IMG/VR virus record: IMGVR_UViG_2585427727_000015 | DNA from: a virus | Taxonomy: Duplodnaviria > Heunggongvirae > Uroviricota > Caudoviricetes | Strand: one strand, 5' to 3' | Length of the DNA: 40,634 nt | In this document: positions 4,966 to 37,007 of the stretch, one piece after another | Layout of the letters: the number at the start of each line of letters is the position of its first letter | Numbering within the stretch: position 1 is the first letter of the stretch | The notes under the pieces: generated by a model | Databases searched by the model: none | Seen by the model: the letters and a program-made list of their open reading frames with translations, nothing else | Told to the model about the DNA's origin: nothing | Position numbers and translations under genes: made by a program

Positions 4966-5042
4966 TTACCGTTGAGGTAATAATTATGCGTATTTGGTTT
5001 GGTGTCAATAGATATGAGTTAAAAAAATTACCCATTAGGTAA
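4966..5042 (-). promoter_or_regulatory. Leftward early promoter (PL-like) with two operators TTACC-N5-GGTAA
   Basis: Minus-strand TTGACA (5003-5008) and -10-like TAATTA (about 4981-4986); perfect palindromes at 4966-4980 (overlapping +1) and 5028-5042 (upstream of -35), centre-to-centre 62 bp. Confidence 0.6.
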
Positions 5043-5099: not shown

Positions 5100-5684
5100 T
5101 TATTGTTTGTTTTTTTCGTTCTGGTTGATGACAAATTCAATGTAACTTTCGATCTTTGCTTTCTCGGTTTCGGGTAACAATGCGTAGCGCGAGCGGTCAT
5201 AGTTGATGGTCGCAGGGTCGTGCGGGTGAATCAGTAATTCATAGCCGTGACGCCCGAATGCGGATGCAACATTCTCCAGGGTGGAAATGGAAACGCTGAC
5301 CTCATTGTTTAACAGGCGGCTGATTGTCACCTGGGCGACGCCGGATGCGCGGTGAAGTTTTCCCTGTGTTGAAAGGTCGCGGCTTTCGCTCATCCAGCGT
5401 TCCAGGTTGTGAGCCGCCAGCTGACCAATGTCGCTTGGGCCGACAGGCTGAAAACCTTCCTGAGAAAGCGAGCGATCGATATCAAGCCAGTTACGTGGTT
5501 TATTGGCGGCAGCTTCAATTTTTCGCGCAACCTGGTCGCCGATAACCTTCTTGCCAAGAGCCCAGCGGTTTACCAGATTTGCCTGAGTTCCAAGTTTTTC
5601 TGCCATCCGCGTCTGAACACCATTGAATTCACGGTCGATCAAGTCGTTGAGATTTTGCCTGCGGACGTCCTGGATACTTTTCAT
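5100..5684 (-). CDS. Prophage repressor (CI-like; XRE-type HTH, possibly two HTH-like segments; no S24 peptidase domain evident)
   Basis: 194-aa ORF divergent from Cro-like gene; HTH-like segment TRMAEKLGTQANLVNRWALGKK and a second ASGVAQVTISRLLNNEVSVSISTLENVASAFG; flanked on both sides by operator palindromes. Confidence 0.7.
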   Translation of the reverse strand: MKSIQDVRRQNLNDLIDREFNGVQTRMAEKLGTQANLVNRWALGKKVIGDQVARKIEAAANKPRNWLDIDRSLSQEGFQPVGPSDIGQLAAHNLERWMSESRDLSTQGKLHRASGVAQVTISRLLNNEVSVSISTLENVASAFGRHGYELLIHPHDPATINYDRSRYALLPETEKAKIESYIEFVINQNEKNKQ

Positions 5685-14993: not shown

Positions 14994-15028
14994 GATTATA
15001 CCTTTAAGGTAATTTGTGGTCATCAGGC

Positions 15029-15218: not shown

Positions 15219-15295
15219 TGGCGTGGCATGCAGGATTCGAACCTGCGACCAACCGCTTAGAAGGCGGTTGCTCTGTCCAACTGAGCTAATGCCAC
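15219..15295 (-). tRNA. tRNA-Arg (anticodon UCU, reads AGA), argU-like
   Basis: 77-nt cloverleaf: acceptor GTGGCAT/ATGCCAC, D-arm GCTC...GAGC, anticodon stem ACCGC/GCGGT with loop CTTCTAA, T-arm GCAGG-TTCGAAT-CCTGC, 3' GCCA. Confidence 0.9.
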
Positions 15296-21429: not shown

Positions 21430-23900
21430 TGGCTATCAGTTGGATCCAGCCCAGCTTTGCCGGTGGTGAGATTGGACCGTCGTTGTACGGTCGTATCGAC
21501 ATGGCGAAGTACCAGGTGGCATTGCGCAAGTGCGATAACTTTATCGTGCGGCAGTATGGCGGAGTTGAGAATCGACCTGGTACGCGTTTTGTCGGTGCCG
21601 CCAAATACCCAAATCGGAAATGCCGCCTGATCCCGTTCCAGTTCTCGACGGTTCAGACTTATGCTCTGGAGTTCGGACACCAGTACATGCGCGTTATCAA
21701 AGATGGTGCGTTGGTGCTGAACAGCAGCAATGTTATTTATGAAATTTCCACGCCATATACTGAAGCCGATCTGTTCCGAATTAAATTCACGCAAAGCGCA
21801 GACGTGCTTACGCTGGTTCATCCGGCATACCCGCCGAAAGAGTTGCGCCGCTATGCGCATGACAACTGGCAACTGGTTGATGTGGTAACGAAGAACGGGC
21901 CATTTGAAGATATCAATATTGACGAGTCAGTGACGGTTTATGCCAGCGCCAGCACCGGGACAATTACGCTAACGGCAAGCGCCTCTATTTTTGGCGCGGA
22001 GCAGGTAGGCAAATTGTTCTATCTGGAACAGCCTGCAGTGGATTCTGTGCCGGTATGGGAAACCAGTAAGAGTACGTCGATTGGCGATATTCGCCGTGCA
22101 GACAGTAACTACTATCGCGCCGTTACAGCAGGCAAAACAGGTACTTTGCGCCCTTCGCATACAGAAGGCACATCATGGGATGGCTGGGGCGGATCCGGTG
22201 ATGATGATACTGGCATTGAGTGGGAATATCTGCACAGTGGTTTTGGCATTGCCCGTATCACTGCTGCAAATGGAACTACTGCAACTGCCGAGGTGATTTC
22301 CTATATCCCTTCGCAGGTTGTGGGCGAGGATAATGCCAGCTATAAATGGGCTAAATATGCCTGGAACAGTGTTAATGGTTATCCTGGCACTGTTGTTTAT
22401 TATCAACAACGTCTTTACTTCGCCGCATCGACTGCGTTTCCTCAGACTATCTGGGCCAGCCGTACCGGGGATTATAAGGATTTTGGCAAAAGCAATCCTA
22501 CGCAGGATGACGACAGAATTATCTACACCTATGCCGGGCGTCAGGTTAATGAGATCCGTCACCTGATTGATGTTGGTTCTCTGGTGGCGCTGACTTCCGG
22601 AGGTGAGTACGTCATCACCGGCGACCAGAACAAAGTGTTAACCCCATCATCATTTGCATTCAGCTCTCAGGGATCAAATGGCTCAAGCAACGTCCCGCCA
22701 ATTGCCGTGGCGAATATTGCTCTGTTCGTCCAGGAGAAAGGCAGCGTTGTCCGTGATCTGGCCTACTCATTCGATGTTGACGGCTATCAGGGGAACGACC
22801 TGACCATCCTTGCCAATCATCTTTTTCAGAGGCACAGCATTGTTGACTGGTGCTTCTCTATTGTCCCTTACTCCAGCGCCTTCTGCATTCGTGATGACGG
22901 TAAATTACTGGTGATGACCTATTTGCGTGATCAGCAGGTTTTTGCATGGGCACCACAATCCAGTACCGGAAAATATGAAAGTACATGCAGTATCAGCGAA
23001 GGCAATGAAGATGCGGTGTATTTCGTCGTTAACCGAACCGTTAACGGGCAAACAGTGAGATACATCGAGCGACTGTCCAGCCGTTTATTTACCAGCGATG
23101 AAGATGCTTTCTTTGTTGATTCTGGCCTTAGCTATGATGGAAGAAATACGTCTGACAGAACGATGATCATCACTGGTGGTTCTGGCGAATGGGATTACCG
23201 CGCGGAATATACAATCAGTGTTTCTGGTGGTGCGTACTTCACCAGTAGTGATGTCGGTGCGCAACTACAGTTCCCTTATACCGGAACTGATCCTGATACT
23301 GGCGATGAAGTGTCAAAAGAATTACGTTGCGACATTATTTCTGTAACCAGCAACACCGCTGTAGTGGTTCGTGCTAACAGGAACGTCCCGCCATCCCTCA
23401 GGAATGTGGCCACCACGAACTGGCAGATGGCGCGCCGGGCATTTGGCGGCTTGTCTCATCTTGAAGGTCAGACCGTAAACATCCTCTCTGATGCGAACGT
23501 GGAACCACAGAAAGTAGTTTCCGGAGGTGCCGTCACGCTGGAATCACCGGGGGCTGTAGTGCACATCGGCCTGCCAATAACTGCTGAATTCGAAACACTG
23601 GATATCAACATTAACGGACAGGAAACGCTGCTGGACAAAAAACAGGTGATCCCATCCGTTACTCTGGTTGTGAATGCCAGCCGCGGCATCTGGGCGACTA
23701 CGCCCGGCGGTAAATGGTACGAATATCCACAGCGTGAATTCGAGTTCTACGATGATCCTGTTGATGATGCTACCGGAAAAGTAGAAGTGAAACTGGACAG
23801 TAACTGGGGCAAAAACGGACGTGTAAAAATCCGTCAGCTTGATCCGTTGCCGCTGTCTGTTCTTGCCGTTATTCCTCGCCTTACTGTTGGGGGATTCTGA
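21429..23900 (+). CDS. Tail nozzle protein (T7 gp12-like tail tubular protein B), tentative
   Basis: 823-aa ORF overlapping upstream stop (TGATG); size and position. Confidence 0.55.
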   Translation: MAISWIQPSFAGGEIGPSLYGRIDMAKYQVALRKCDNFIVRQYGGVENRPGTRFVGAAKYPNRKCRLIPFQFSTVQTYALEFGHQYMRVIKDGALVLNSSNVIYEISTPYTEADLFRIKFTQSADVLTLVHPAYPPKELRRYAHDNWQLVDVVTKNGPFEDINIDESVTVYASASTGTITLTASASIFGAEQVGKLFYLEQPAVDSVPVWETSKSTSIGDIRRADSNYYRAVTAGKTGTLRPSHTEGTSWDGWGGSGDDDTGIEWEYLHSGFGIARITAANGTTATAEVISYIPSQVVGEDNASYKWAKYAWNSVNGYPGTVVYYQQRLYFAASTAFPQTIWASRTGDYKDFGKSNPTQDDDRIIYTYAGRQVNEIRHLIDVGSLVALTSGGEYVITGDQNKVLTPSSFAFSSQGSNGSSNVPPIAVANIALFVQEKGSVVRDLAYSFDVDGYQGNDLTILANHLFQRHSIVDWCFSIVPYSSAFCIRDDGKLLVMTYLRDQQVFAWAPQSSTGKYESTCSISEGNEDAVYFVVNRTVNGQTVRYIERLSSRLFTSDEDAFFVDSGLSYDGRNTSDRTMIITGGSGEWDYRAEYTISVSGGAYFTSSDVGAQLQFPYTGTDPDTGDEVSKELRCDIISVTSNTAVVVRANRNVPPSLRNVATTNWQMARRAFGGLSHLEGQTVNILSDANVEPQKVVSGGAVTLESPGAVVHIGLPITAEFETLDININGQETLLDKKQVIPSVTLVVNASRGIWATTPGGKWYEYPQREFEFYDDPVDDATGKVEVKLDSNWGKNGRVKIRQLDPLPLSVLAVIPRLTVGGF

Positions 23901-24364
23901 TGATCGATGTTCAAATTATTCCCGCAACCGAAGAGCATCTTCAGATGATTTTGCCGGATGTTCGTCAGGCTGATATTGACGAACTGTATGCGGTATCACT
24001 GATGACTACCGAAGATGCGCTGCGTGTTGGTCTGCGTACTGCGACTATGGCCTGGTCAGGATTTGCGAACGGAGAACTGGTAACCATGTTTGGCGTATCT
24101 CCGGCGTCAATGATCGGTGGCAATGGTACGCCCTGGCTGGTCGGAACCAGCCGTATCGAAAAATATCAGAAGACATTTCTTCGCCACTGCCGCCCTGTAT
24201 TGCAGCAGATGCTGGCAGTTTATCCGCGCCTGGAAAACTATGTCGACGAGCGAAACCATGTTGCCAAAGCATGGCTGCACTGGCTTGGATTCAGGCTTGA
24301 AGAAGCCGCGCCTTATGGTGCTCTTGGTCTTAATTTCCACAGATTTCACATGGAGAGAAAATAA
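23900..24364 (+). CDS. Putative internal virion protein (154 aa)
   Basis: ATGA overlap with nozzle gene; position in ejection-protein cluster. Confidence 0.45.
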   Translation: MIDVQIIPATEEHLQMILPDVRQADIDELYAVSLMTTEDALRVGLRTATMAWSGFANGELVTMFGVSPASMIGGNGTPWLVGTSRIEKYQKTFLRHCRPVLQQMLAVYPRLENYVDERNHVAKAWLHWLGFRLEEAAPYGALGLNFHRFHMERK

Positions 24365-29226: not shown

Positions 29227-31701
29227 ATGAGACAGGAATGTATACAAGCGGTCCAGCAGGCGGCGCAGCGCACATTAACGGCGCGAGAAATACAGAACAT
29301 TGAAGACCGCATTTATCGAAATATGCGCTCCATTGCTCGTGATGACCCGATGTCGTGGAGACAACTTTCCGAATCAGAGCGGCTATATCGTGCAGCACAA
29401 TTGGCATCTGAAGAATTACAGCTAGAAGCGGCATTAAAGAAACGTCGTGTGGCCCTCACTATAGCCGCACGTCAGAGATTGGATAAATTTATCAATAGCT
29501 ATCAAGGGGCTGATGGGAAACTTGGCGCTCTTAACCGTACTATTGCTTTTAATGCAGACGGTAAATCGAATTTCCTCTCTGTTGAATCCAGAACAAAAGC
29601 CACTCGTGATTATGCATTGAGTCAATTGCAGGAGGCATTTGAAGCAGTTGATCCTCGCTTTTTTGGCCTGTTTGAAGATGAAGCTGGCGTGCGTGACCTG
29701 GTATATGAAATGCGAGGGCAAAATACTGGCAATGCTAAAGCAAGAAAAGGTGCTAAGGCGTGGAGAGAAGTGACAGAGCTACTGCGCCGCCGGTTTAATG
29801 ATGCTGGTGGGGACATTGGCTATCTCGAAAACTGGGGGATCCCTCAACATCATTCTATGGAAAAGGTTGGGGCGGTATCAAAGGATAAGTGGGTTAGCGA
29901 TGTTATAGGTAAGCTGGATCGCAAATATTATATCCGAGCCGATGGACAACTGATGAACGATGCCGAGTTGTCTTCATTTCTTGGAGAGGCTTATAACACG
30001 ATCGCTACTGGTGGGCTGAATAAGCTTACTGATACCGGAATGCGAATTTCCGGCGCACGTGCTAACCGTGGTAATGCATCACGACAGATACATTTCAAAG
30101 ATGCAGATTCCTATCTGCAATATCAACAACTTTATGGCGATCGCTCTCTATGGGAAATCATGGTCGGTCACCTGGAAGGTATCAGTAAAGATATTGCACT
30201 GGTGGAAACATATGGCCCAAACCCCGATCATGTTTTCCGCTCTCTTCTTGATCAGGTGAAGGCAGAAACGGCAACAGCTAACCCGAGTAAAACCGGTAAA
30301 GTCGAGCGGCTGGCGAACAACACAGAGAATCTGTACAACTTTATTTCCGGAAAGACACAGCCTGTAGCGAATCCGCACATCGCGCGATGGTCTGACAATA
30401 TCCGCAACTGGCTGGTTGCCAGCAGACTCGGATCCGCGTTGCTATCATCGTTCTCTGATCTTGGAACCATGTATCTGTCTGCGAAGGTGACCAACCTTCC
30501 AATGAACCAGTTATTCCGCAACCAGCTTGAAGCTATGGACCCAACGAACCGTACAGAACTTGCGCGGGCGCGCCGCGCTGGTCTGGCAATGGAATCTCTA
30601 CTTGGCAGCGTTAACCGCTGGGCGATGGATAATATGGGGCCGTCAGTGTCTCGTTGGGCAGCAACGGCGGTAATGCGTGCCAGTGGGCTTACAGCATGGT
30701 CAGATGCGCACAAGCGCGCCTATGGCGTAACCATGATGGGAAGCCTGGGAGAAGTAGTGTCACGGACACCAGACCTTCGTAGCCTCGATGACTCTGATTT
30801 TCGTATCCTGAAAAGCAAAGGGATTACTGACACAGACTGGAGCGTATGGAAGCTGGCGCAACAGGAGGACTGGGGGAACGGTAATAATACGATGCTGACA
30901 CCGGAAAGCATTATGCGTATCCCTGATTCAGCAGTTAAACATCTTGGTGAGCCTGAACGCGTGAAATTTGAGGCAATGCGTAAACTGCTCGGTGCCGTAA
31001 CTGAAGAAGTTGATATGGCTGTTATTACACCGGGAGCACGTGAGCAACTGATAACCGGTTCTGGTATTCAGCGTGGAACATGGAAAGGTGAATTAACGAG
31101 AAGTGTTTTCCTGTTTAAATCGTTCCCTATCTCGGTGGTTATGCGTCACTGGTCACGCGCTATGGGTATGCCGTCTGCTGGTGGGCGTGCGGCATATATT
31201 GCGACGTTTATTGCCAGTACGACCATTCTTGGCGCTTTGTCGCAGCAACTTAACGACCTTGCGTCTGGTCGTAATCCTCGCGAGATGACAGGAGAAGATG
31301 CTGCTAAATTTTGGCTTGGTGCTCTACTGAAAGGTGGTGGTCTTGGCCTTTACGGTGACTTTTTATTGTCAGATCACACTAGGTACGGAAGCGGCGCGCT
31401 GGCGTCGATGCTTGGCCCGGTAGCTGTCCTGGTTGATGACGTAGTGAAGATAGCTCAGGGCATACCATTAAATGCTGTGGAAGGGAAGAACGAGCAGACT
31501 GGTGGTGATCTGGTGAAACTTGGGAAAGGGCTGATGCCAGGTGCGAATCTCTGGTACTTGAAGGCAGCTCTTGATCACATGATCTTTAACCAGATGCAGG
31601 AGTATTTTTCACCAGGCTATTTGCGTAAAATGGAGCAACGTTCGAAGAAAGAGTTTAACCAGACATACTGGTGGCGACCTCAGGATGTCACTCCGCAATA
31701 A
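29227..31701 (+). CDS. Internal virion/ejection protein (824 aa)
   Basis: Large ORF directly following; position analogous to T7 gp15/gp16-type core proteins. Confidence 0.55.
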   Translation: MRQECIQAVQQAAQRTLTAREIQNIEDRIYRNMRSIARDDPMSWRQLSESERLYRAAQLASEELQLEAALKKRRVALTIAARQRLDKFINSYQGADGKLGALNRTIAFNADGKSNFLSVESRTKATRDYALSQLQEAFEAVDPRFFGLFEDEAGVRDLVYEMRGQNTGNAKARKGAKAWREVTELLRRRFNDAGGDIGYLENWGIPQHHSMEKVGAVSKDKWVSDVIGKLDRKYYIRADGQLMNDAELSSFLGEAYNTIATGGLNKLTDTGMRISGARANRGNASRQIHFKDADSYLQYQQLYGDRSLWEIMVGHLEGISKDIALVETYGPNPDHVFRSLLDQVKAETATANPSKTGKVERLANNTENLYNFISGKTQPVANPHIARWSDNIRNWLVASRLGSALLSSFSDLGTMYLSAKVTNLPMNQLFRNQLEAMDPTNRTELARARRAGLAMESLLGSVNRWAMDNMGPSVSRWAATAVMRASGLTAWSDAHKRAYGVTMMGSLGEVVSRTPDLRSLDDSDFRILKSKGITDTDWSVWKLAQQEDWGNGNNTMLTPESIMRIPDSAVKHLGEPERVKFEAMRKLLGAVTEEVDMAVITPGAREQLITGSGIQRGTWKGELTRSVFLFKSFPISVVMRHWSRAMGMPSAGGRAAYIATFIASTTILGALSQQLNDLASGRNPREMTGEDAAKFWLGALLKGGGLGLYGDFLLSDHTRYGSGALASMLGPVAVLVDDVVKIAQGIPLNAVEGKNEQTGGDLVKLGKGLMPGANLWYLKAALDHMIFNQMQEYFSPGYLRKMEQRSKKEFNQTYWWRPQDVTPQ

Positions 31702-32201: not shown

Positions 32202-32226
32202 AGGCCGCTTTCGCGGCCTTGTTTTT
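32202..32226 (+). terminator. Rho-independent terminator ending the ejection-protein operon
   Basis: AGGCCGC-TTTC-GCGGCCT followed by TGTTTTT. Confidence 0.7.
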
Positions 32227-32386
32227 AACGAATGCCACCGCCGCCCGGGCGGGAATCCGCAGAACGCCCACCGCAGCGGGAGCCGTCAGCGGCAGTATCG
32301 CTGTCGTGCTGACAACGACCGGCAAAGGCCTGAGTTGAAGCTACCAGAGACAACAAAACGAACAGTGCAGCAAATGCTTTTTTCAT
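32225..32386 (-). CDS. Small putative secreted peptide (53 aa with signal-peptide-like N-terminus), tentative
   Basis: MKKAFAALFVLLSLVASTQA; candidate minus-strand promoter TTGACG-N16-TATAGA just upstream. Confidence 0.25.
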   Translation of the reverse strand: MKKAFAALFVLLSLVASTQAFAGRCQHDSDTAADGSRCGGRSADSRPGGGGIR

Positions 32387-32458: not shown

Positions 32459-32479
32459 AAAAAAGCCCGCGCTGCGGGC
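32459..32479 (-). terminator. Rho-independent terminator of the 210-aa orphan gene
   Basis: Minus strand GCCCGC-AGC-GCGGGC followed by T6. Confidence 0.7.
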
Positions 32480-32484
32480 TTCTA

Positions 32485-33117
32485 TTAATGCAGTTTATCT
32501 TTGCTTATAACCAGTAGTCTGTGGGTATGCACATCTTTATCACTGCCCCAACAGAAATCAGCCCACTGGCTATAGAAATCATCCCATGATGCCATGAAGC
32601 TAAGAGGTCTATCTTCTTCAGAGCCATCTGAAACGTATACATTATATCCTGGGGTGTTTATAGCCCAAGAAATCATTCTTTCCCAGAATCTTCTCCCATC
32701 GATTGTTTGTTGCTCATCAGATACAACGATCGCATATTGCTCTAGGAAGAACTGAAAAAAAATCTGAGGCAAACCATGAACAGCACGGTCATGAATAACA
32801 TTAGGCGTACGCCATACCATGATCTGCGTACATGTTCTTTTGGCTTCGACGATATCTTCCCGAAAGATTAACTTAACCGCATACACCGTTTCTGGAGTAT
32901 CGCTGGTAGTAATCATTCTGTAATGATCGCCATTACAAGATTTTACAAGGCGATAACCATAAGGTGTTGTGAATCCCGGAAGAACGAAATCAACCACACC
33001 TTTCGCTAAGTAGCTTTCGGTGTGACTAGTGTTCTTCTCAGACATGTTCAGTTTTCTATCGAAATCTGCTTCTGGGATAATGTATGGCATCGCTTTTCTT
33101 GTTGTATTTGTTCTCAT
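32485..33117 (-). CDS. Orphan hypothetical protein (210 aa), own repressible promoter and terminator
   Basis: Strong SD GGGAGGA 5 nt before ATG 33117; no recognised motif. Confidence 0.6.
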   Translation of the reverse strand: MRTNTTRKAMPYIIPEADFDRKLNMSEKNTSHTESYLAKGVVDFVLPGFTTPYGYRLVKSCNGDHYRMITTSDTPETVYAVKLIFREDIVEAKRTCTQIMVWRTPNVIHDRAVHGLPQIFFQFFLEQYAIVVSDEQQTIDGRRFWERMISWAINTPGYNVYVSDGSEEDRPLSFMASWDDFYSQWADFCWGSDKDVHTHRLLVISKDKLH

Positions 33118-33176
33118 TTCGTCCTCCCATGTTTGGCTACAGGACGCGTTTTGAAGGGAAGATTAAAAATGCTTTC

Positions 33177-33219
33177 TTACCCTTGAGGTAATAGTACGCT
33201 ATTCACCCCCAGTCTGCAA
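33177..33219 (-). promoter_or_regulatory. Promoter TTGCAG-N17-TACTAT with operator TTACCCTTGAGGTAA at +1
   Basis: Minus-strand -35 at 33214-33219, -10 at 33191-33196, perfect palindrome 33177-33191. Confidence 0.55.
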
Positions 33220-33263: not shown

Positions 33264-33920
33264 TCAGAAGAACCCTGCCTTGTCGTTGATGTACTCCGCG
33301 TGCGTCTGGATATCACGCAGGCATTTGCTCACACCAACGATGTAGCAGAACATGGTGGTCAGCTCCGCCGCCGCGCCCGATACGTCATGCCCGTCTTCCT
33401 GTAACTGGTTCAGCAAATTCATCAGCAGTGAGTTCTCCGTCAGGCCGAGAACACCAGACGGCGAATGAATCAGGCTCCGGTAGCCGGGCTTCAGCGGTGC
33501 ACTGTATTCTTTTTTGTCTTCCAGCTTGATCGCCTCCATAATGGCGGGCATGAAGCCTGACAAGACCTTCTCCACTTTTGTTTCTTGTTGTCTTAAACGT
33601 TTCTCGCATTCAATGAAGTAGCGTCGCACCTGGCGACCTTTTTCGTTACGCTCGACCATCGCCAGCTCTTTGGCTGTATCAAGGGTGAGGTGGTACTCTT
33701 TGCGGTTGTGTCCGCCTCTACCAGATGTTTGCTTTCCCAAATTGGAAAGCAAAATATAGTCTTGATTTTCAATGAATTCGTATTCTGAAATGCGATTTGT
33801 AATCCATGCTGCAAACACCTTTTTAACACCTAAAAAAGCGTGCAGATCGCGGGCATTACAAAGTAGGGCTGTTTCGTTAGATATAGTGCCGTTGAATACG
33901 GGGATGAGTTGAGCGTTCAT
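33264..33920 (-). CDS. ant: Antirepressor, AntA/AntB N-terminal domain family
   Basis: 218-aa ORF; N-terminal [39 protein letters not shown]...[27 protein letters not shown] matches the AntA/AntB antirepressor domain pattern. Confidence 0.7.
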
Positions 33921-34078
33921 GATGGCGTCTCCACTTAGCGAATTACATCACCACCGCTGAGACCAATCAGATGGTGGTGAACTGAACGGAGTTGGTCTTA
34001 CCGGCCTAAGTGGTACCGGCGTCCTTTCGGACCCCCATTCAGCCCACCATAATTCTGGCATGACTGTGCTATACGCAT

Positions 34079-34234
34079 AAAAAAACCACGTCTGGCGTGG
34101 TATGCGCCACTTAGTAATCCGGGAGACCAATCCCGGCACTGGATTTTGCCAGTGCCTGATTACTATGGCACAAGAGGAGTGCGATGTAAATTTACCGCAA
34201 AGGTAAATATAAGCACTCCACTTGGTAATTGCAA
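34079..34234 (-). promoter_or_regulatory. Promoter (TTGCAA-N17-TATATT) + operator at +1 (34192-34206) + structured leader + intrinsic terminator (34079-34100) upstream of ant; candidate attenuator or about 120-nt sRNA
   Basis: -35 34229-34234, -10 34206-34211 on minus strand; two-hairpin element 34113-34164; terminator CCACG-CCAGA-CGTGG + T7 at 34079-34100. Confidence 0.45.
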
Positions 34235-34237
34235 ACC

Positions 34238-34495
34238 TTATCTGGTTTGCTTTCGTAATTGTTCGGCACAATAGTCGAGATGTGTTTGCAGATCCTGCAT
34301 AGACATCTGTGAGCTGGTGACGTAGTTAATCAGTGCAGTCAGTTCGGCAAGTGGGCCATCGACATTAAATCCATCCTTATCGAGATCCCGGAGTAATTTC
34401 ATCAAGTGCGATCCCTCCACCAGTGACCTGACGCCTCCCGGCGTGTGAATCCTTTCGGTAAATCCGTCTTCCAGTGGATAGTTATACTGCTGCAT
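34238..34495 (-). CDS. Small protein (85 aa; 90 aa if started at 34510) homologous to the C-terminal domain of the adjacent Ant; LexA-box-controlled
   Basis: HTPGGVRSLVEGSHLMKLLRDLDKDGFNVDGPLAELTAL...MQDLQTHLDYC aligns with Ant residues [39 protein letters not shown]...[11 protein letters not shown]; SD GGAGAAG before ATG 34495. Confidence 0.6.
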   Translation of the reverse strand: MQQYNYPLEDGFTERIHTPGGVRSLVEGSHLMKLLRDLDKDGFNVDGPLAELTALINYVTSSQMSMQDLQTHLDYCAEQLRKQTR

Positions 34496-34517
34496 CTTAA
34501 TCTTCTCCATGCAATAA

Positions 34518-34572: not shown

Positions 34573-34587
34573 TTACCTGAAAGGTAA
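34573..34587. promoter_or_regulatory. Operator-like palindrome TTACCTGAAAGGTAA in divergent region between Ant-paralog gene and tailspike
   Basis: Perfect copy, identical over 17 nt to the site at 15618. Confidence 0.5.
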
Positions 34588-34691: not shown

Positions 34692-37007
34692 ATGACGGTC
34701 TCAACCGAAGTTGACCACAACGAATACACAGGTAACGGCGTTACGACATCGTTTCCGTATACTTTTCGAATTTTCAGAAAATCAGACCTGGTTGTTCAGG
34801 TGTCTGACCTGAACGGGAACGTAACAGAATTGGTTCTGGATACCGGTTATACGGTAACTGGGGCGGGCACTTATAGTGGCGGTTCAGTGGTTCTGCCGTC
34901 TCCGCTTGCTGCTGGCTGGCGAATTACGATAGATCGTGTGCTTGATGTAGTGCAGGAGACAGATCTTCGCAATCAGGGAAAATTTTTCCCCGAAGTGCAT
35001 GAAGATGCTTTTGACTACCTGACGATGCTGATCCAGCAATGTTTTGGGTGGTTCAGACGTGCATTGATGAAACCATCTTTGCTTGCAAAATATTACGATG
35101 CAAAGCAAAACAAAATTTCTAACCTTGCAGATCCATCACTTGAGCAGGACGCTGTAAATAATCGCTCAATGCGTAATTATGTCGATGCTGCAATCGCCGG
35201 GGTTGTTGGTGGTTTTGGTTGGTTTATTCAGTATGGTTCTGGAGCAGTATACCGAACGTTCCAGGATAAGATGAGAGACACCGTTAGTGTTTGCGATTTT
35301 GGGGCAAAAGGCGATGGTATAACAGATGATACATCTGCATTGATCTTGGCTGCAGAATATGCACGAGAATCATCCAGAACATTACGAGCGGAAGGTAATT
35401 TTATTATTACGGAGACATTAAATCTTCGTAATGTCAGCCTCGAAATGACCAATGCTGTTTTTACCATATCCCACCCAGGAATAGGGGTATTGCTTGGCGG
35501 GAATGCATCAAACCCTAACAACCCAAGACAAAACTTCGGAACGATTATCAGAAATTCTGGTATTTCATCTGAAACGACACCGGATATTCGTATTATCGGG
35601 GCAAAAGGGCAGCATATAAACATTGAGCGTTGCGACTACTTACAGTTATATGCAAATTATAATGCTTCGGTGGCATCGACGGATTATTCAATAGCATACT
35701 CAACCTTTAACCTGAAAAAGGTCGATACAATTCATTTTCTTGGAGTTGAGAAAGGATGGATAAATGAAAACTATTTTTATCTGAATCGTACGAATAATAT
35801 CATTTTCGCTGATAATCCATATCATCATAACCACAATAAGTTTTATGGTGGAACTATGGAGGGGGCAGGTAAAATTGATATTCAAAGAGGTGATAACAAT
35901 TACTTCTACGGGTTTCGTTTTGAACGATATCCATCATCCCAAACTAACCAACAGTTGATAATTAACTTTGGTGAATATACGTGGAATAACTCAATTGAAG
36001 CTACATGGTTAAGTTCTCCTTACTATACAAATGAGCCATACAATCCATCACCTTACACTTATGTCGAGGTAACTGATAATGGCAAGGGGAATGCAGTATT
36101 TCATATTCAGGAAAATATATCCGATGAAGTAACATTGTTTTCTTTAAATGCTAACACCCCATTTATATCCAGTGCTAACAATGGAGAAGTTGGTGTATTA
36201 GCATTTCAAACAGATGTAGATGGTTTATATAATATCCGTCACCTGGTTTCTTCTAAGTTTGCTTTTATGCGGAATTTTGGGTTGTTATGGGAATCTGGAG
36301 ATGTACCAGTAAGAAATGGTGATATGTTTACATTCTCAGCAGATACGGCATCGTTTCGCATTTACCTGTATGCATTAGATGGAGATGGGAATGTCATAAC
36401 TTCACAAACAGAAGCAATAACTTCTTCTATGCAATGGGATTCATCTAACCATAGATATGCTACTGTTGCTAACATTTCTTCCATTAAGATCAGGATTAAT
36501 AATGAAGGGGTTCCAGTTAGTGCAATTCGTTTAGCTGTGTATTCTGGTGGTAATGTAGCGAATACTGCATTTTCATGGCTATGCTTAACTGGTAGATATT
36601 ACAAAAATAGCACATCCTTGCCAAGGAAAAGAAAAGATAACTTCACCTTAAAACAAGGAAAAGCAATTACTTATTATAGTGATACTGATATTAGTATGGC
36701 TAACATTGGTTCAGGAATTACCTGTTATAAAACCGATTTATCTGAACTCAAAATTAATCTTGTAAGGGGCAGGTATGTAGTGAAATCAATTTCAGGCAGT
36801 GAAATATATGTATACCAAGGAACAGTCACTTATTACCCTCCATTCAGTGATATCAAATTGGTATATACGGATGGGGTTGAAAATAAATTATTAGATGTGC
36901 AAAACATCTCTTCAGGAAAGATTACTCTTGCAGATACAGTACCATCAGCTATATCTGCAGGCGATTTTGTAGATGTTATTGTTACAAAGACGAAATCTAT
37001 TTTATGA
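34692..37007 (+). CDS. Tailspike protein (conserved N-terminal particle-binding domain, AT-rich C-terminal receptor-binding domain, likely O-antigen depolymerase)
   Basis: 771-aa ORF; N-terminus MTVSTEVDHNEYTGNGVTTSFPYTFRIF matches (from memory) the N-terminal domain shared by epsilon15/phiV10-type tailspikes; C-terminal two-thirds markedly lower GC. Confidence 0.8.
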   Translation: MTVSTEVDHNEYTGNGVTTSFPYTFRIFRKSDLVVQVSDLNGNVTELVLDTGYTVTGAGTYSGGSVVLPSPLAAGWRITIDRVLDVVQETDLRNQGKFFPEVHEDAFDYLTMLIQQCFGWFRRALMKPSLLAKYYDAKQNKISNLADPSLEQDAVNNRSMRNYVDAAIAGVVGGFGWFIQYGSGAVYRTFQDKMRDTVSVCDFGAKGDGITDDTSALILAAEYARESSRTLRAEGNFIITETLNLRNVSLEMTNAVFTISHPGIGVLLGGNASNPNNPRQNFGTIIRNSGISSETTPDIRIIGAKGQHINIERCDYLQLYANYNASVASTDYSIAYSTFNLKKVDTIHFLGVEKGWINENYFYLNRTNNIIFADNPYHHNHNKFYGGTMEGAGKIDIQRGDNNYFYGFRFERYPSSQTNQQLIINFGEYTWNNSIEATWLSSPYYTNEPYNPSPYTYVEVTDNGKGNAVFHIQENISDEVTLFSLNANTPFISSANNGEVGVLAFQTDVDGLYNIRHLVSSKFAFMRNFGLLWESGDVPVRNGDMFTFSADTASFRIYLYALDGDGNVITSQTEAITSSMQWDSSNHRYATVANISSIKIRINNEGVPVSAIRLAVYSGGNVANTAFSWLCLTGRYYKNSTSLPRKRKDNFTLKQGKAITYYSDTDISMANIGSGITCYKTDLSELKINLVRGRYVVKSISGSEIYVYQGTVTYYPPFSDIKLVYTDGVENKLLDVQNISSGKITLADTVPSAISAGDFVDVIVTKTKSIL

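Follow-up and report, generated by a model that had tools for sequence, protein, structure and literature searches.

A 210-residue PHROG 1349 protein as the present cargo of a conserved, putatively repressor-gated slot in an epsilon15-type Escherichia coli prophage

We analyzed a stretch of DNA of 40,634 nucleotides (IMG/VR record IMGVR_UViG_2585427727_000015, one strand, 5' to 3'; hereafter the window), which by sequence comparison is a phiV10/epsilon15-type (Uetakevirus) prophage genome of E. coli, and within it a minus-strand gene for a 210-aa protein (32485..33117, starting with ATG). We found that the promoter, operator, and terminator around this gene belong to the phage backbone, where they form a slot whose cargo differs between related prophages. 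The reading that we favor, and to which we assign a probability of roughly 0.5, is that the 210-aa gene is the present cargo of a conserved repressor-gated slot and encodes a GNAT-like enzyme that acts in lytic growth.

A conserved slot with exchangeable cargo

Upon aligning the window with TL-2011b, one of the relatives whose sequence matches the DNA flanking the unit (the others being phiv142-3, ZX5, and phiV10), we observed near-identity through window position 32482, terminator included, unrelated sequence inside the unit, and near-identity again from position 33177 on, with this second stretch taking in the operator, the -10 and -35 hexamers, and the antirepressor gene. The exchangeable cargo segment thus spans 694 bp (32483..33176, minus strand) and has a GC content of 0.41 versus 0.485 for the window; no small open reading frames (ORFs) were found within it. 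Because the cargo starts and stops precisely at the operator on the right and the terminator on the left, we read the arrangement as a slot and not as a self-contained gene. The latter description, given by an earlier reading of the sequence (the original prediction), is misleading, as TL-2011b is nearly identical on both sides of 32483-33176, and the promoter and terminator that it had assigned to the gene as its own belong to a slot common to other cargos.

In TL-2011b, the slot holds a YafO-family toxin gene and a 59-aa ORF, the small ORF lying upstream, between an operator and a terminator that are identical to those of the window. Five further E. coli prophages carry still other cargos (DUF4760; DUF2335 plus 108 aa; 110 plus 62 aa; 251 aa; 146 plus 55 aa), and all five retain, in the same place, the leading A-run and stem arm of the terminator, together with TTACC-N5-GGTAA followed by TAnnAT. 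In a look at the neighborhood in related prophages, which the original prediction had proposed as a check, the operator and terminator context was found to be kept and the 210-aa cargo to be replaced in six of them. DNA flanking the slot is matched in ~800 E. coli genomes. By this comparison, promoter, operator, and terminator constitute a conserved backbone slot, with cargo being swapped between them. At least seven different cargos occur in the same slot, four of which are small-plus-large pairs resembling toxin-antitoxin modules (YafO with the 59-aa ORF, and the DUF2335 + 108 aa, 110 + 62 aa, and 146 + 55 aa pairs), and none of ten alternative slot cargos matched a PADLOC model.

The anatomy of the unit largely follows the original prediction. 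The -35 hexamer TTGCAG (33214..33219, minus strand; 3/6 consensus positions) is part of the backbone and not of the cargo, and is identical in TL-2011b and in two more slot prophages (L086 and L088). It is separated by a 17-nt spacer from the -10 hexamer TACTAT (33191..33196, minus strand), which overlaps the operator by one base; a TAnnAT hexamer (TACTAT, TAAAAT, or TAATAT) abuts the operator in all 7 slot variants compared. The putative operator palindrome TTACCCTTGAGGTAA (33177-33191) covers the predicted +1, as had been proposed, and its first base doubles as the final base of the -10 hexamer. A cargo-specific 5' leader (33118..33176, minus strand) follows, with a Shine-Dalgarno (SD) sequence GGAGG (33123-33127, minus strand) that was correctly recognized, 5 nt before the ATG. 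The unit closes with an intrinsic terminator (32459-32483, minus strand), a backbone element with stem core GCCCGC/GCGGGC, a 3-nt loop, and U6; its hairpin, also anticipated and conserved in TL-2011b, has a predicted minimum free energy of -17 kcal/mol (centroid -15.3 kcal/mol, z -2.5), with 4 of 200 shuffles scoring equally well.

The promoter had been called good. Its hexamers and 17-nt spacer are present, but the adjective was too generous, since the slot promoter TTGCAG-N17-TACTAT (33219..33191) agrees with the consensus at 7/12 positions, is absent from our consensus-scan listing, and by itself is no better than chance. The promoter call is backed by conservation and by a layout in which the -10 hexamer abuts an operator, which recurs before terS and at both the antirepressor/c4 and the PL-like promoters.

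We also considered a control element in the leader. A predicted hairpin in the window pairs the SD with an upstream CGUCCU, and close homologues have retained a CUCC or GUCC 10-14 nt ahead of GGAGGAC, which might fold into an anti-SD hairpin. Across 36 homologues, the pairing probability of the SD amounted to 0.63 versus 0.60 in shuffles, showing no excess, and RNAalifold returned no consensus structure for the homologue leaders. With pairing no better than in shuffles, an SD-sequestering hairpin was not established as a conserved control element.

Morons are extra phage genes with their own promoter and terminator (the Hendrix/Juhala definition), such as lambda bor and lom, which in the classical case are expressed even while the prophage is repressed. 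The 210-aa gene shares several of their traits: it is one extra transcription unit that is absent or replaced in close relatives, it has an atypical composition, and it has a promoter on one side and an intrinsic terminator on the other. It differs from them in that the start site of the slot lies under the phage's own operator, and in that promoter and terminator stay with the backbone and not with the cargo. The position of the putative operator over the +1 argues against transcription from the repressed prophage.

The operator motif and the resident repressor

By several lines of comparison, the palindrome at the slot promoter is of the phage's own operator type. Allowing at most one mismatch, TTACC-N5-GGTAA occurs at 15 sites in the window versus 0.74 expected (~20-fold), and 0 of 100 shuffles reached that number. 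The sites lie at 4966, 5028, 5740, 5788, 6125, 8047, 8109, 12040, 12058, 14998, 15618, 33177, 34192, 34573, and 37672, and their symmetrized consensus is close to aTTACCTnwnAGGTAAt. Sites 5740 and 5788 sit between the divergent repressor and cro-like genes, sites 4966 and 5028 flank a TTGACA promoter (PL-like) downstream of the repressor gene, and further sites precede the resolvase gene, terS, the tRNA-Arg region, the antirepressor gene, and a 90-aa ORF; the copy at the 210-aa gene differs by a single base from the PL-proximal site (4966-4980). The motif is thus dispersed before most transcription units, over a span of 4966-37686. Epsilon15 carries the same motif 15 times, though its repressor is only 42% identical to that of the window, and seven of its sites were annotated by the depositors as 'protein_bind: repressor, lysogeny' (GenBank AY150271.2). 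Since the motif is found at cI/cro-like and PL-like regions and at annotated epsilon15 repressor sites, we read it as a repressor operator.

The presumed binder is the product of the repressor gene (5100..5684, minus strand), a 194-aa protein with two helix-turn-helix (HTH) regions (YdaS-like at residues 21-61, HTH_3 at residues 106-147) that is 100% identical to the repressors of phiV10, phiv142-3, and vB_EcoP_ZX5 (ORF21). In ZX5, overexpression of the repressor lowered endolysin and holin transcripts by >99.9%, while overexpression of the antirepressor promoted the lytic cycle (PMC9782041). Because a domain search of the repressor revealed no LexA-type S24 peptidase/cleavage domain, induction presumably proceeds via the antirepressor.

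An operator of the resident-repressor type overlaps the core of the slot promoter, which is the arrangement of an epsilon15-type repressor-controlled early gene. The proposal that the 210-aa gene is under repressor control, silent in the lysogen and expressed with the early lytic genes, is therefore the part of the original prediction that we find best supported, by sequence comparison and by the identity of the ZX5 repressor, and we infer it as the most economical reading of the locus. In the favored mechanism, the backbone supplies a modest sigma-70-like promoter, one 15-bp operator over the -10/+1 region, and an intrinsic terminator. In a lysogen, the cI-like repressor bound at the operator would keep the gene off or at a very low level, whereas infection of a naive cell or antirepressor-driven induction would lead to its transcription along with the early genes. 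Translation would start from the strong SD and transcription would stop at the slot terminator. The product would be a cytoplasmic transferase-type enzyme with a substrate common to many Gammaproteobacteria, and its effect would be to condition the cell in lytic growth rather than to inhibit one defense protein stoichiometrically.

Copies of the operator also occur beside relatives of the gene in other phages. The cassette of LLS-type phages retains TACTA-TTACCCAGAAGGTAA ~90 nt upstream of the gene (LLS record 42053-42067), and Serratia and Symbiopectobacterium homologues have an operator copy in their promoters, while most of the distant homologues have none upstream. These copies are compatible with the cassette having moved along with a portion of the slot promoter, and a traveling operator of this kind speaks against the 210-aa protein regulating its own gene at the palindrome. 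We consider autoregulation unlikely, the motif being absent upstream of most homologues and present before unrelated cargos. A search for P1 C1 operators next to the homologue on the P1-like plasmid, allowing up to 3 mismatches, gave none.

A widespread family with a predicted GNAT-like fold

The 210-aa ORF is a real gene, as had been assumed, and it is no orphan. The original prediction had stated that it matches no family; over its full length, however, the protein matches PHROG 1349 (E 1.1e-112, residues 1-210 on profile positions 1-210/210), as do all of 48 diverse relatives. We collected 63 homologues at E<=1e-3 across Enterobacterales, with 37-99% identity, and a profile of 33 homologues retrieved at least 923 cluster representatives (clustered at 50% identity) at E<=1e-3. 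The 33-sequence alignment has 27 invariant columns. W102 and W145 are nearly invariant even at 22-49% identity, and strong conservation of polar residues extends over N29, Y79, Q98, W102, R103, D134, Q137, T138, W145, Y161, D164, and W190-G191. An allele with >=99% identity is present in 93 of 5,426 complete E. coli genomes, and two sequence variants of the 90% cluster are each found on >500 contigs. The protein had no match in Pfam or NCBIfam, and a literature search retrieved no paper on the PHROG 1349 family.

Prophages, phage-plasmids, and plasmids all carry members of the family, and others form single-gene islets in chromosomes. Relatives lie after Rz/Rz1 in the lambdoid phage LLS and in related Enterobacter prophages. 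In Serratia prophages, they are placed amid tail genes with an Arc/Ant module alongside, and a P1-like Citrobacter phage-plasmid has one between its baseplate genes and sit; 46 PLSDB plasmids carry the family, non-phage ones included. Chromosomal single copies are embedded among housekeeping genes (in Photorhabdus at phosphotransferase-system genes and hda; in the Enterobacter group at genes for an MmyB-type regulator and a nitroreductase; in Proteus at pagP). The syntenic chromosomal orthologues display ratios of nonsynonymous to synonymous substitution rates (dN/dS) of 0.02-0.10 across genera, with dS up to saturation, and the chromosomal members in the Enterobacter group, Photorhabdus, and Proteus are inherited vertically under strong purifying selection. 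Among isolated phages, tblastn detected the family in 4 of 50,697 records, and a distant member used as the query gave 0 hits in the same 50,697 records.

Three unusual architectures were encountered: a metagenomic protein in which an SRA_ScoMcrA domain is fused to the family domain and whose gene is preceded by a Phd/YefM antitoxin gene (L093, 5823-7080), another protein with an MqsA zinc ribbon fused to the family domain (L094, 1519-2262), and a copy on a Cedecea plasmid that is followed by an overlapping gene for a small HTH protein of 65 aa (L090, 4977-5809). These rare architectures, all singletons or tiny clusters, hint at an effector role that is possibly directed at nucleic acid. They bear on the idea that the protein is a toxin or abortive-infection effector that kills or arrests the cell when derepressed, as type II GNAT toxins do, an idea to which the Phd/YefM gene, the small HTH gene in Cedecea, the weak structural matches to AtaT, TacT, and KacT, and the occupation of the slot by YafO with its small upstream ORF in TL-2011b and by small-plus-large modules in several other prophages lend some weight. 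We nevertheless consider it very unlikely: no partner gene is conserved in 62 loci (the maximal sharing, 16/62, reflects clade synteny), with no small ORFs in the cargo of the window either, no adjacent cognate antitoxin gene of the type II kind was recognized, solo chromosomal copies are under strong purifying selection, the fusions are confined to singletons or tiny clusters, and no toxin family was matched in Pfam, NCBIfam, or PADLOC.

Structure prediction weakly suggests a GNAT-like topology. The AlphaFold2 model of the 210-aa protein reached a predicted local distance difference test score of 79.2 and a predicted template modeling score of 0.75, and its strand-helix order fits a GNAT core (beta1-alpha1-alpha2-beta2-4-alpha3-beta5-alpha4-beta6) with an extra strand and an N-terminal extension. 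The Foldseek search suggested by the original prediction went in the same direction, as all 50 PDB matches listed were GNAT acyltransferases or GNAT-like domains, but they were weak (all E >= 0.014); the highest match was AAC(2')-Ia, with a probability of 0.90, and the GNAT toxins AtaT, TacT, and KacT appeared among the weak ones. In BFVD, the best matches were uncharacterized phage proteins (Agrobacterium phage Atu_ph07, E 3e-9), followed by proteins annotated as NAT_SF or acyl-CoA N-acyltransferase. Compared with examples of the GNAT superfamily (Naa40/NatD, 4ua3; AAC(2')-Ia, 5us1; HAT1, 1bob; AtaT/TacT/KacT), the likeness thus lies in the predicted strand-helix order and in leading structural matches that are acetyltransferases or GNAT-like domains. 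At the sequence level, a conserved T-x-x-G-x-x-F-W-E stretch resembles GNAT motif B, and the strand ending in W102-R103 is followed by a longer loop without a conserved G-x-G/A, G115 being unconserved in the deep alignment; a PDB sequence search with two family profiles yielded noise only. We judge the odds of a divergent GNAT-like enzyme to be slightly better than even, and, given the predicted GNAT-like fold, an enzyme seems likelier than a stoichiometric inhibitor.

Candidate relatives among known phage proteins were compared by hhalign and rejected. Mu Mom gave a probability of 0.25%, and Mom itself hits PF25680 at 2.4e-75, a model that the 210-aa protein does not match; T4 Mrh and ModA.3 remained at <= 0.4%, with one family relative showing a weak PF24070 match (E 0.08). 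A 154-aa ORF of the window (23900-24364, plus strand) lies in the virion/ejection gene block and corresponds in size and position to gp13 of epsilon15, an annotated GNAT acetyltransferase with a single transmembrane segment; by hhalign, this ORF too proved unrelated to the 210-aa protein.

From the wiring, the original prediction had guessed at an anti-defense or host-takeover function. An early product that neutralizes host immunity by binding or modification would agree with the early, repressor-gated wiring, with remote structural relatives in phages such as Agrobacterium phage Atu_ph07, and with the resemblance of the locus to anti-CRISPR/aca loci, in which a fixed promoter under the operator of a small repressor drives interchangeable cargo by structural genes. 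The slot, too, combines a fixed promoter and operator with interchangeable cargos at one position inside or beside structural genes. It differs in that its regulator is the main immunity repressor and not a dedicated Aca protein, in that its cargos include a toxin-antitoxin-like module (the YafO module, which is not of the anti-defense type), and in that no slot cargo matches a known PADLOC family. The guess is weakened by the strongly constrained, vertically inherited chromosomal orthologues in housekeeping neighborhoods, which would be unusual for anti-defense proteins, as well as by the rarity of the family in isolated phages. GNAT-fold counter-defense enzymes of phages do exist, as exemplified by Mu Mom, a GNAT-fold protein responsible for a Gly-tRNA-dependent DNA adenine modification (PMC13219725), but the 210-aa protein shows no sequence relation to it, and overall we regard an anti-defense role as unlikely.

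The parallel with Mom lies elsewhere: both are single phage accessory genes for proteins of ~210-240 aa with a GNAT-type fold (predicted here) that go unexpressed in the lysogen (as the operator suggests here), and an SRA domain, of the kind that flips DNA bases, is fused to one member of the PHROG 1349 family. A bolder version of our reading would have the slot serve as a repressor-gated cargo bay, with operator and terminator as fixed junctions, through which temperate phages exchange conflict genes; the LLS cassette would be a trace of such transfer, and PHROG 1349 a new GNAT-like branch with an unusual donor or acceptor (for instance nucleic acid or aminoacyl-tRNA, as in Mom and as the SRA fusion may hint) employed in phage-host or phage-phage conflict. 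We offer this as speculation and think it rather unlikely as a whole.

Several observations weigh against the favored reading of a repressor-gated, lytically acting GNAT-like enzyme. Repressor binding and transcript timing at the slot promoter, which scores poorly on its own, are read from comparison. In LLS-type phages and related Enterobacter prophages, the operator is kept while the resident repressor is unrelated, and the LLS genome contains no other perfect operator site. As the LLS cassette keeps its operator without a cognate repressor, repressor gating is evidently not a property of the gene everywhere, and in LLS the gene is probably not repressor-controlled, although the stray operator could make it respond to a co-resident phiV10-type prophage. 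On the enzyme side, the GNAT profiles of Pfam and NCBIfam matched neither the 210-aa protein nor any of the 48 relatives, and the canonical motif A, Q/R-x-x-G-x-G/A, is not evident in two family alignments. Finally, the constrained chromosomal orthologues suggest a function that benefits the cell itself, and would fit a benefit to the lysogen at least as well as a lytic role.

A lysogen-benefit moron is accordingly the main rival, in which the prophage would express the gene at least at a low level for a fitness function (phage exclusion or defense, or a physiological or detoxifying activity) and the operator would only modulate it. Besides the stable chromosomal islets with their low dN/dS across genera, the presence on non-phage plasmids, and the LLS operator that lacks a cognate repressor, it can draw on the occurrence of the gene in classical moron positions of four unrelated phage types, on its AT-richness relative to the backbone, and on a neighboring 53-aa membrane protein that is classed as a moron. 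Yet in the window the operator that lies on the start site has a perfect core and differs by a single base from the PL-proximal operator. All slot variants conserve it, for which there would be no reason if the lysogen were supposed to express the cargo. As for defense in particular, the 210-aa protein matched 0 PADLOC-DB v2 defense families at E<=1. We therefore hold a benefit to the lysogen to be possible but doubtful.

Neighboring units and what the slot may mean

As the original prediction had noted, the 210-aa gene has an accessory location between the genes for an ejection protein (29227-31701) and the tailspike (34692-37007). Directly upstream of the slot lies an AntA/Bro-type antirepressor gene (33264..33920, minus strand; PF08346, E 4e-26; phrog_377), whose leader contains a C4 antisense RNA (33970-34054, minus strand; Rfam score 61.2 versus a gathering threshold of 45) and an isrK-like RNA (34079-34155, minus strand; 67.7 versus 50). 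This long leader would be driven by the antirepressor/c4 promoter TTGCAA-N17-TATATT (34206-34234, minus strand; 9/12 consensus positions), with the putative operator TTACCGCAAAGGTAA (34192-34206) arranged just as at the slot promoter. By its parts (operator-promoter, isrK/C4 RNAs, antirepressor), the region amounts to an immI module of the P1 type within an epsilon15-type podovirus. Farther upstream, a 90-aa ORF (34238-34510, minus strand) is a paralogue of the C-terminal domain of the antirepressor (phrog_450); it has its own operator-headed promoter (operator at 34573-34587) and its position corresponds to that of epsilon15 gp19. Because the antirepressor gene, the 90-aa ORF, and the slot are each headed by an operator, the region from ejection protein to tailspike can be described as a putative array of three operator-gated units, with the 210-aa gene as the last.

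Two further features were observed nearby or elsewhere in the window. Just downstream of the slot terminator, a gene for a membrane-anchored 53-aa protein (32225-32386, minus strand; phrog_14503, 'moron' category) is conserved across slot variants. A tRNA-Arg(TCT) gene (15219-15295, minus strand) lies in a divergent intergenic region between the operator sites at 14998 and 15618.

In phage P1, the immI locus consists of a C1-controlled promoter, the c4 antisense RNA, icd, and ant, and C1 operators are dispersed over the genome. The window shares with P1 an antirepressor gene whose operator-covered promoter is followed by a C4-family RNA, as well as a motif scattered over ~15 sites before many transcription units. 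It differs in belonging to an epsilon15-type podovirus and in its symmetric TTACC-N5-GGTAA motif, as opposed to the asymmetric 17-mer of P1; moreover, the 210-aa gene, an additional unit following ant, has no P1 counterpart. Like the window, epsilon15 has 15 motif copies, and their placement corresponds: they are found before terS, the resolvase gene, and the pre-tailspike gene, as well as downstream of the repressor gene. Unlike the window, it has neither an antirepressor module nor a cargo slot in this region, which contains only gp19 and is expanded in the E. coli relatives.

The PHROG 1349 family comprises at least 923 clusters at 50% identity, yet it has no name and no Pfam model. If the GNAT-like assignment is true, it would represent a widespread and strongly constrained enzyme with a substrate to be found. 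The slot itself provides a clean experimental handle, as it joins one promoter, one operator, and a known repressor to interchangeable cargos. Should the logic of the slot be general, temperate phages would place accessory genes under the control of their immunity repressor, instead of having them on in the lysogen.

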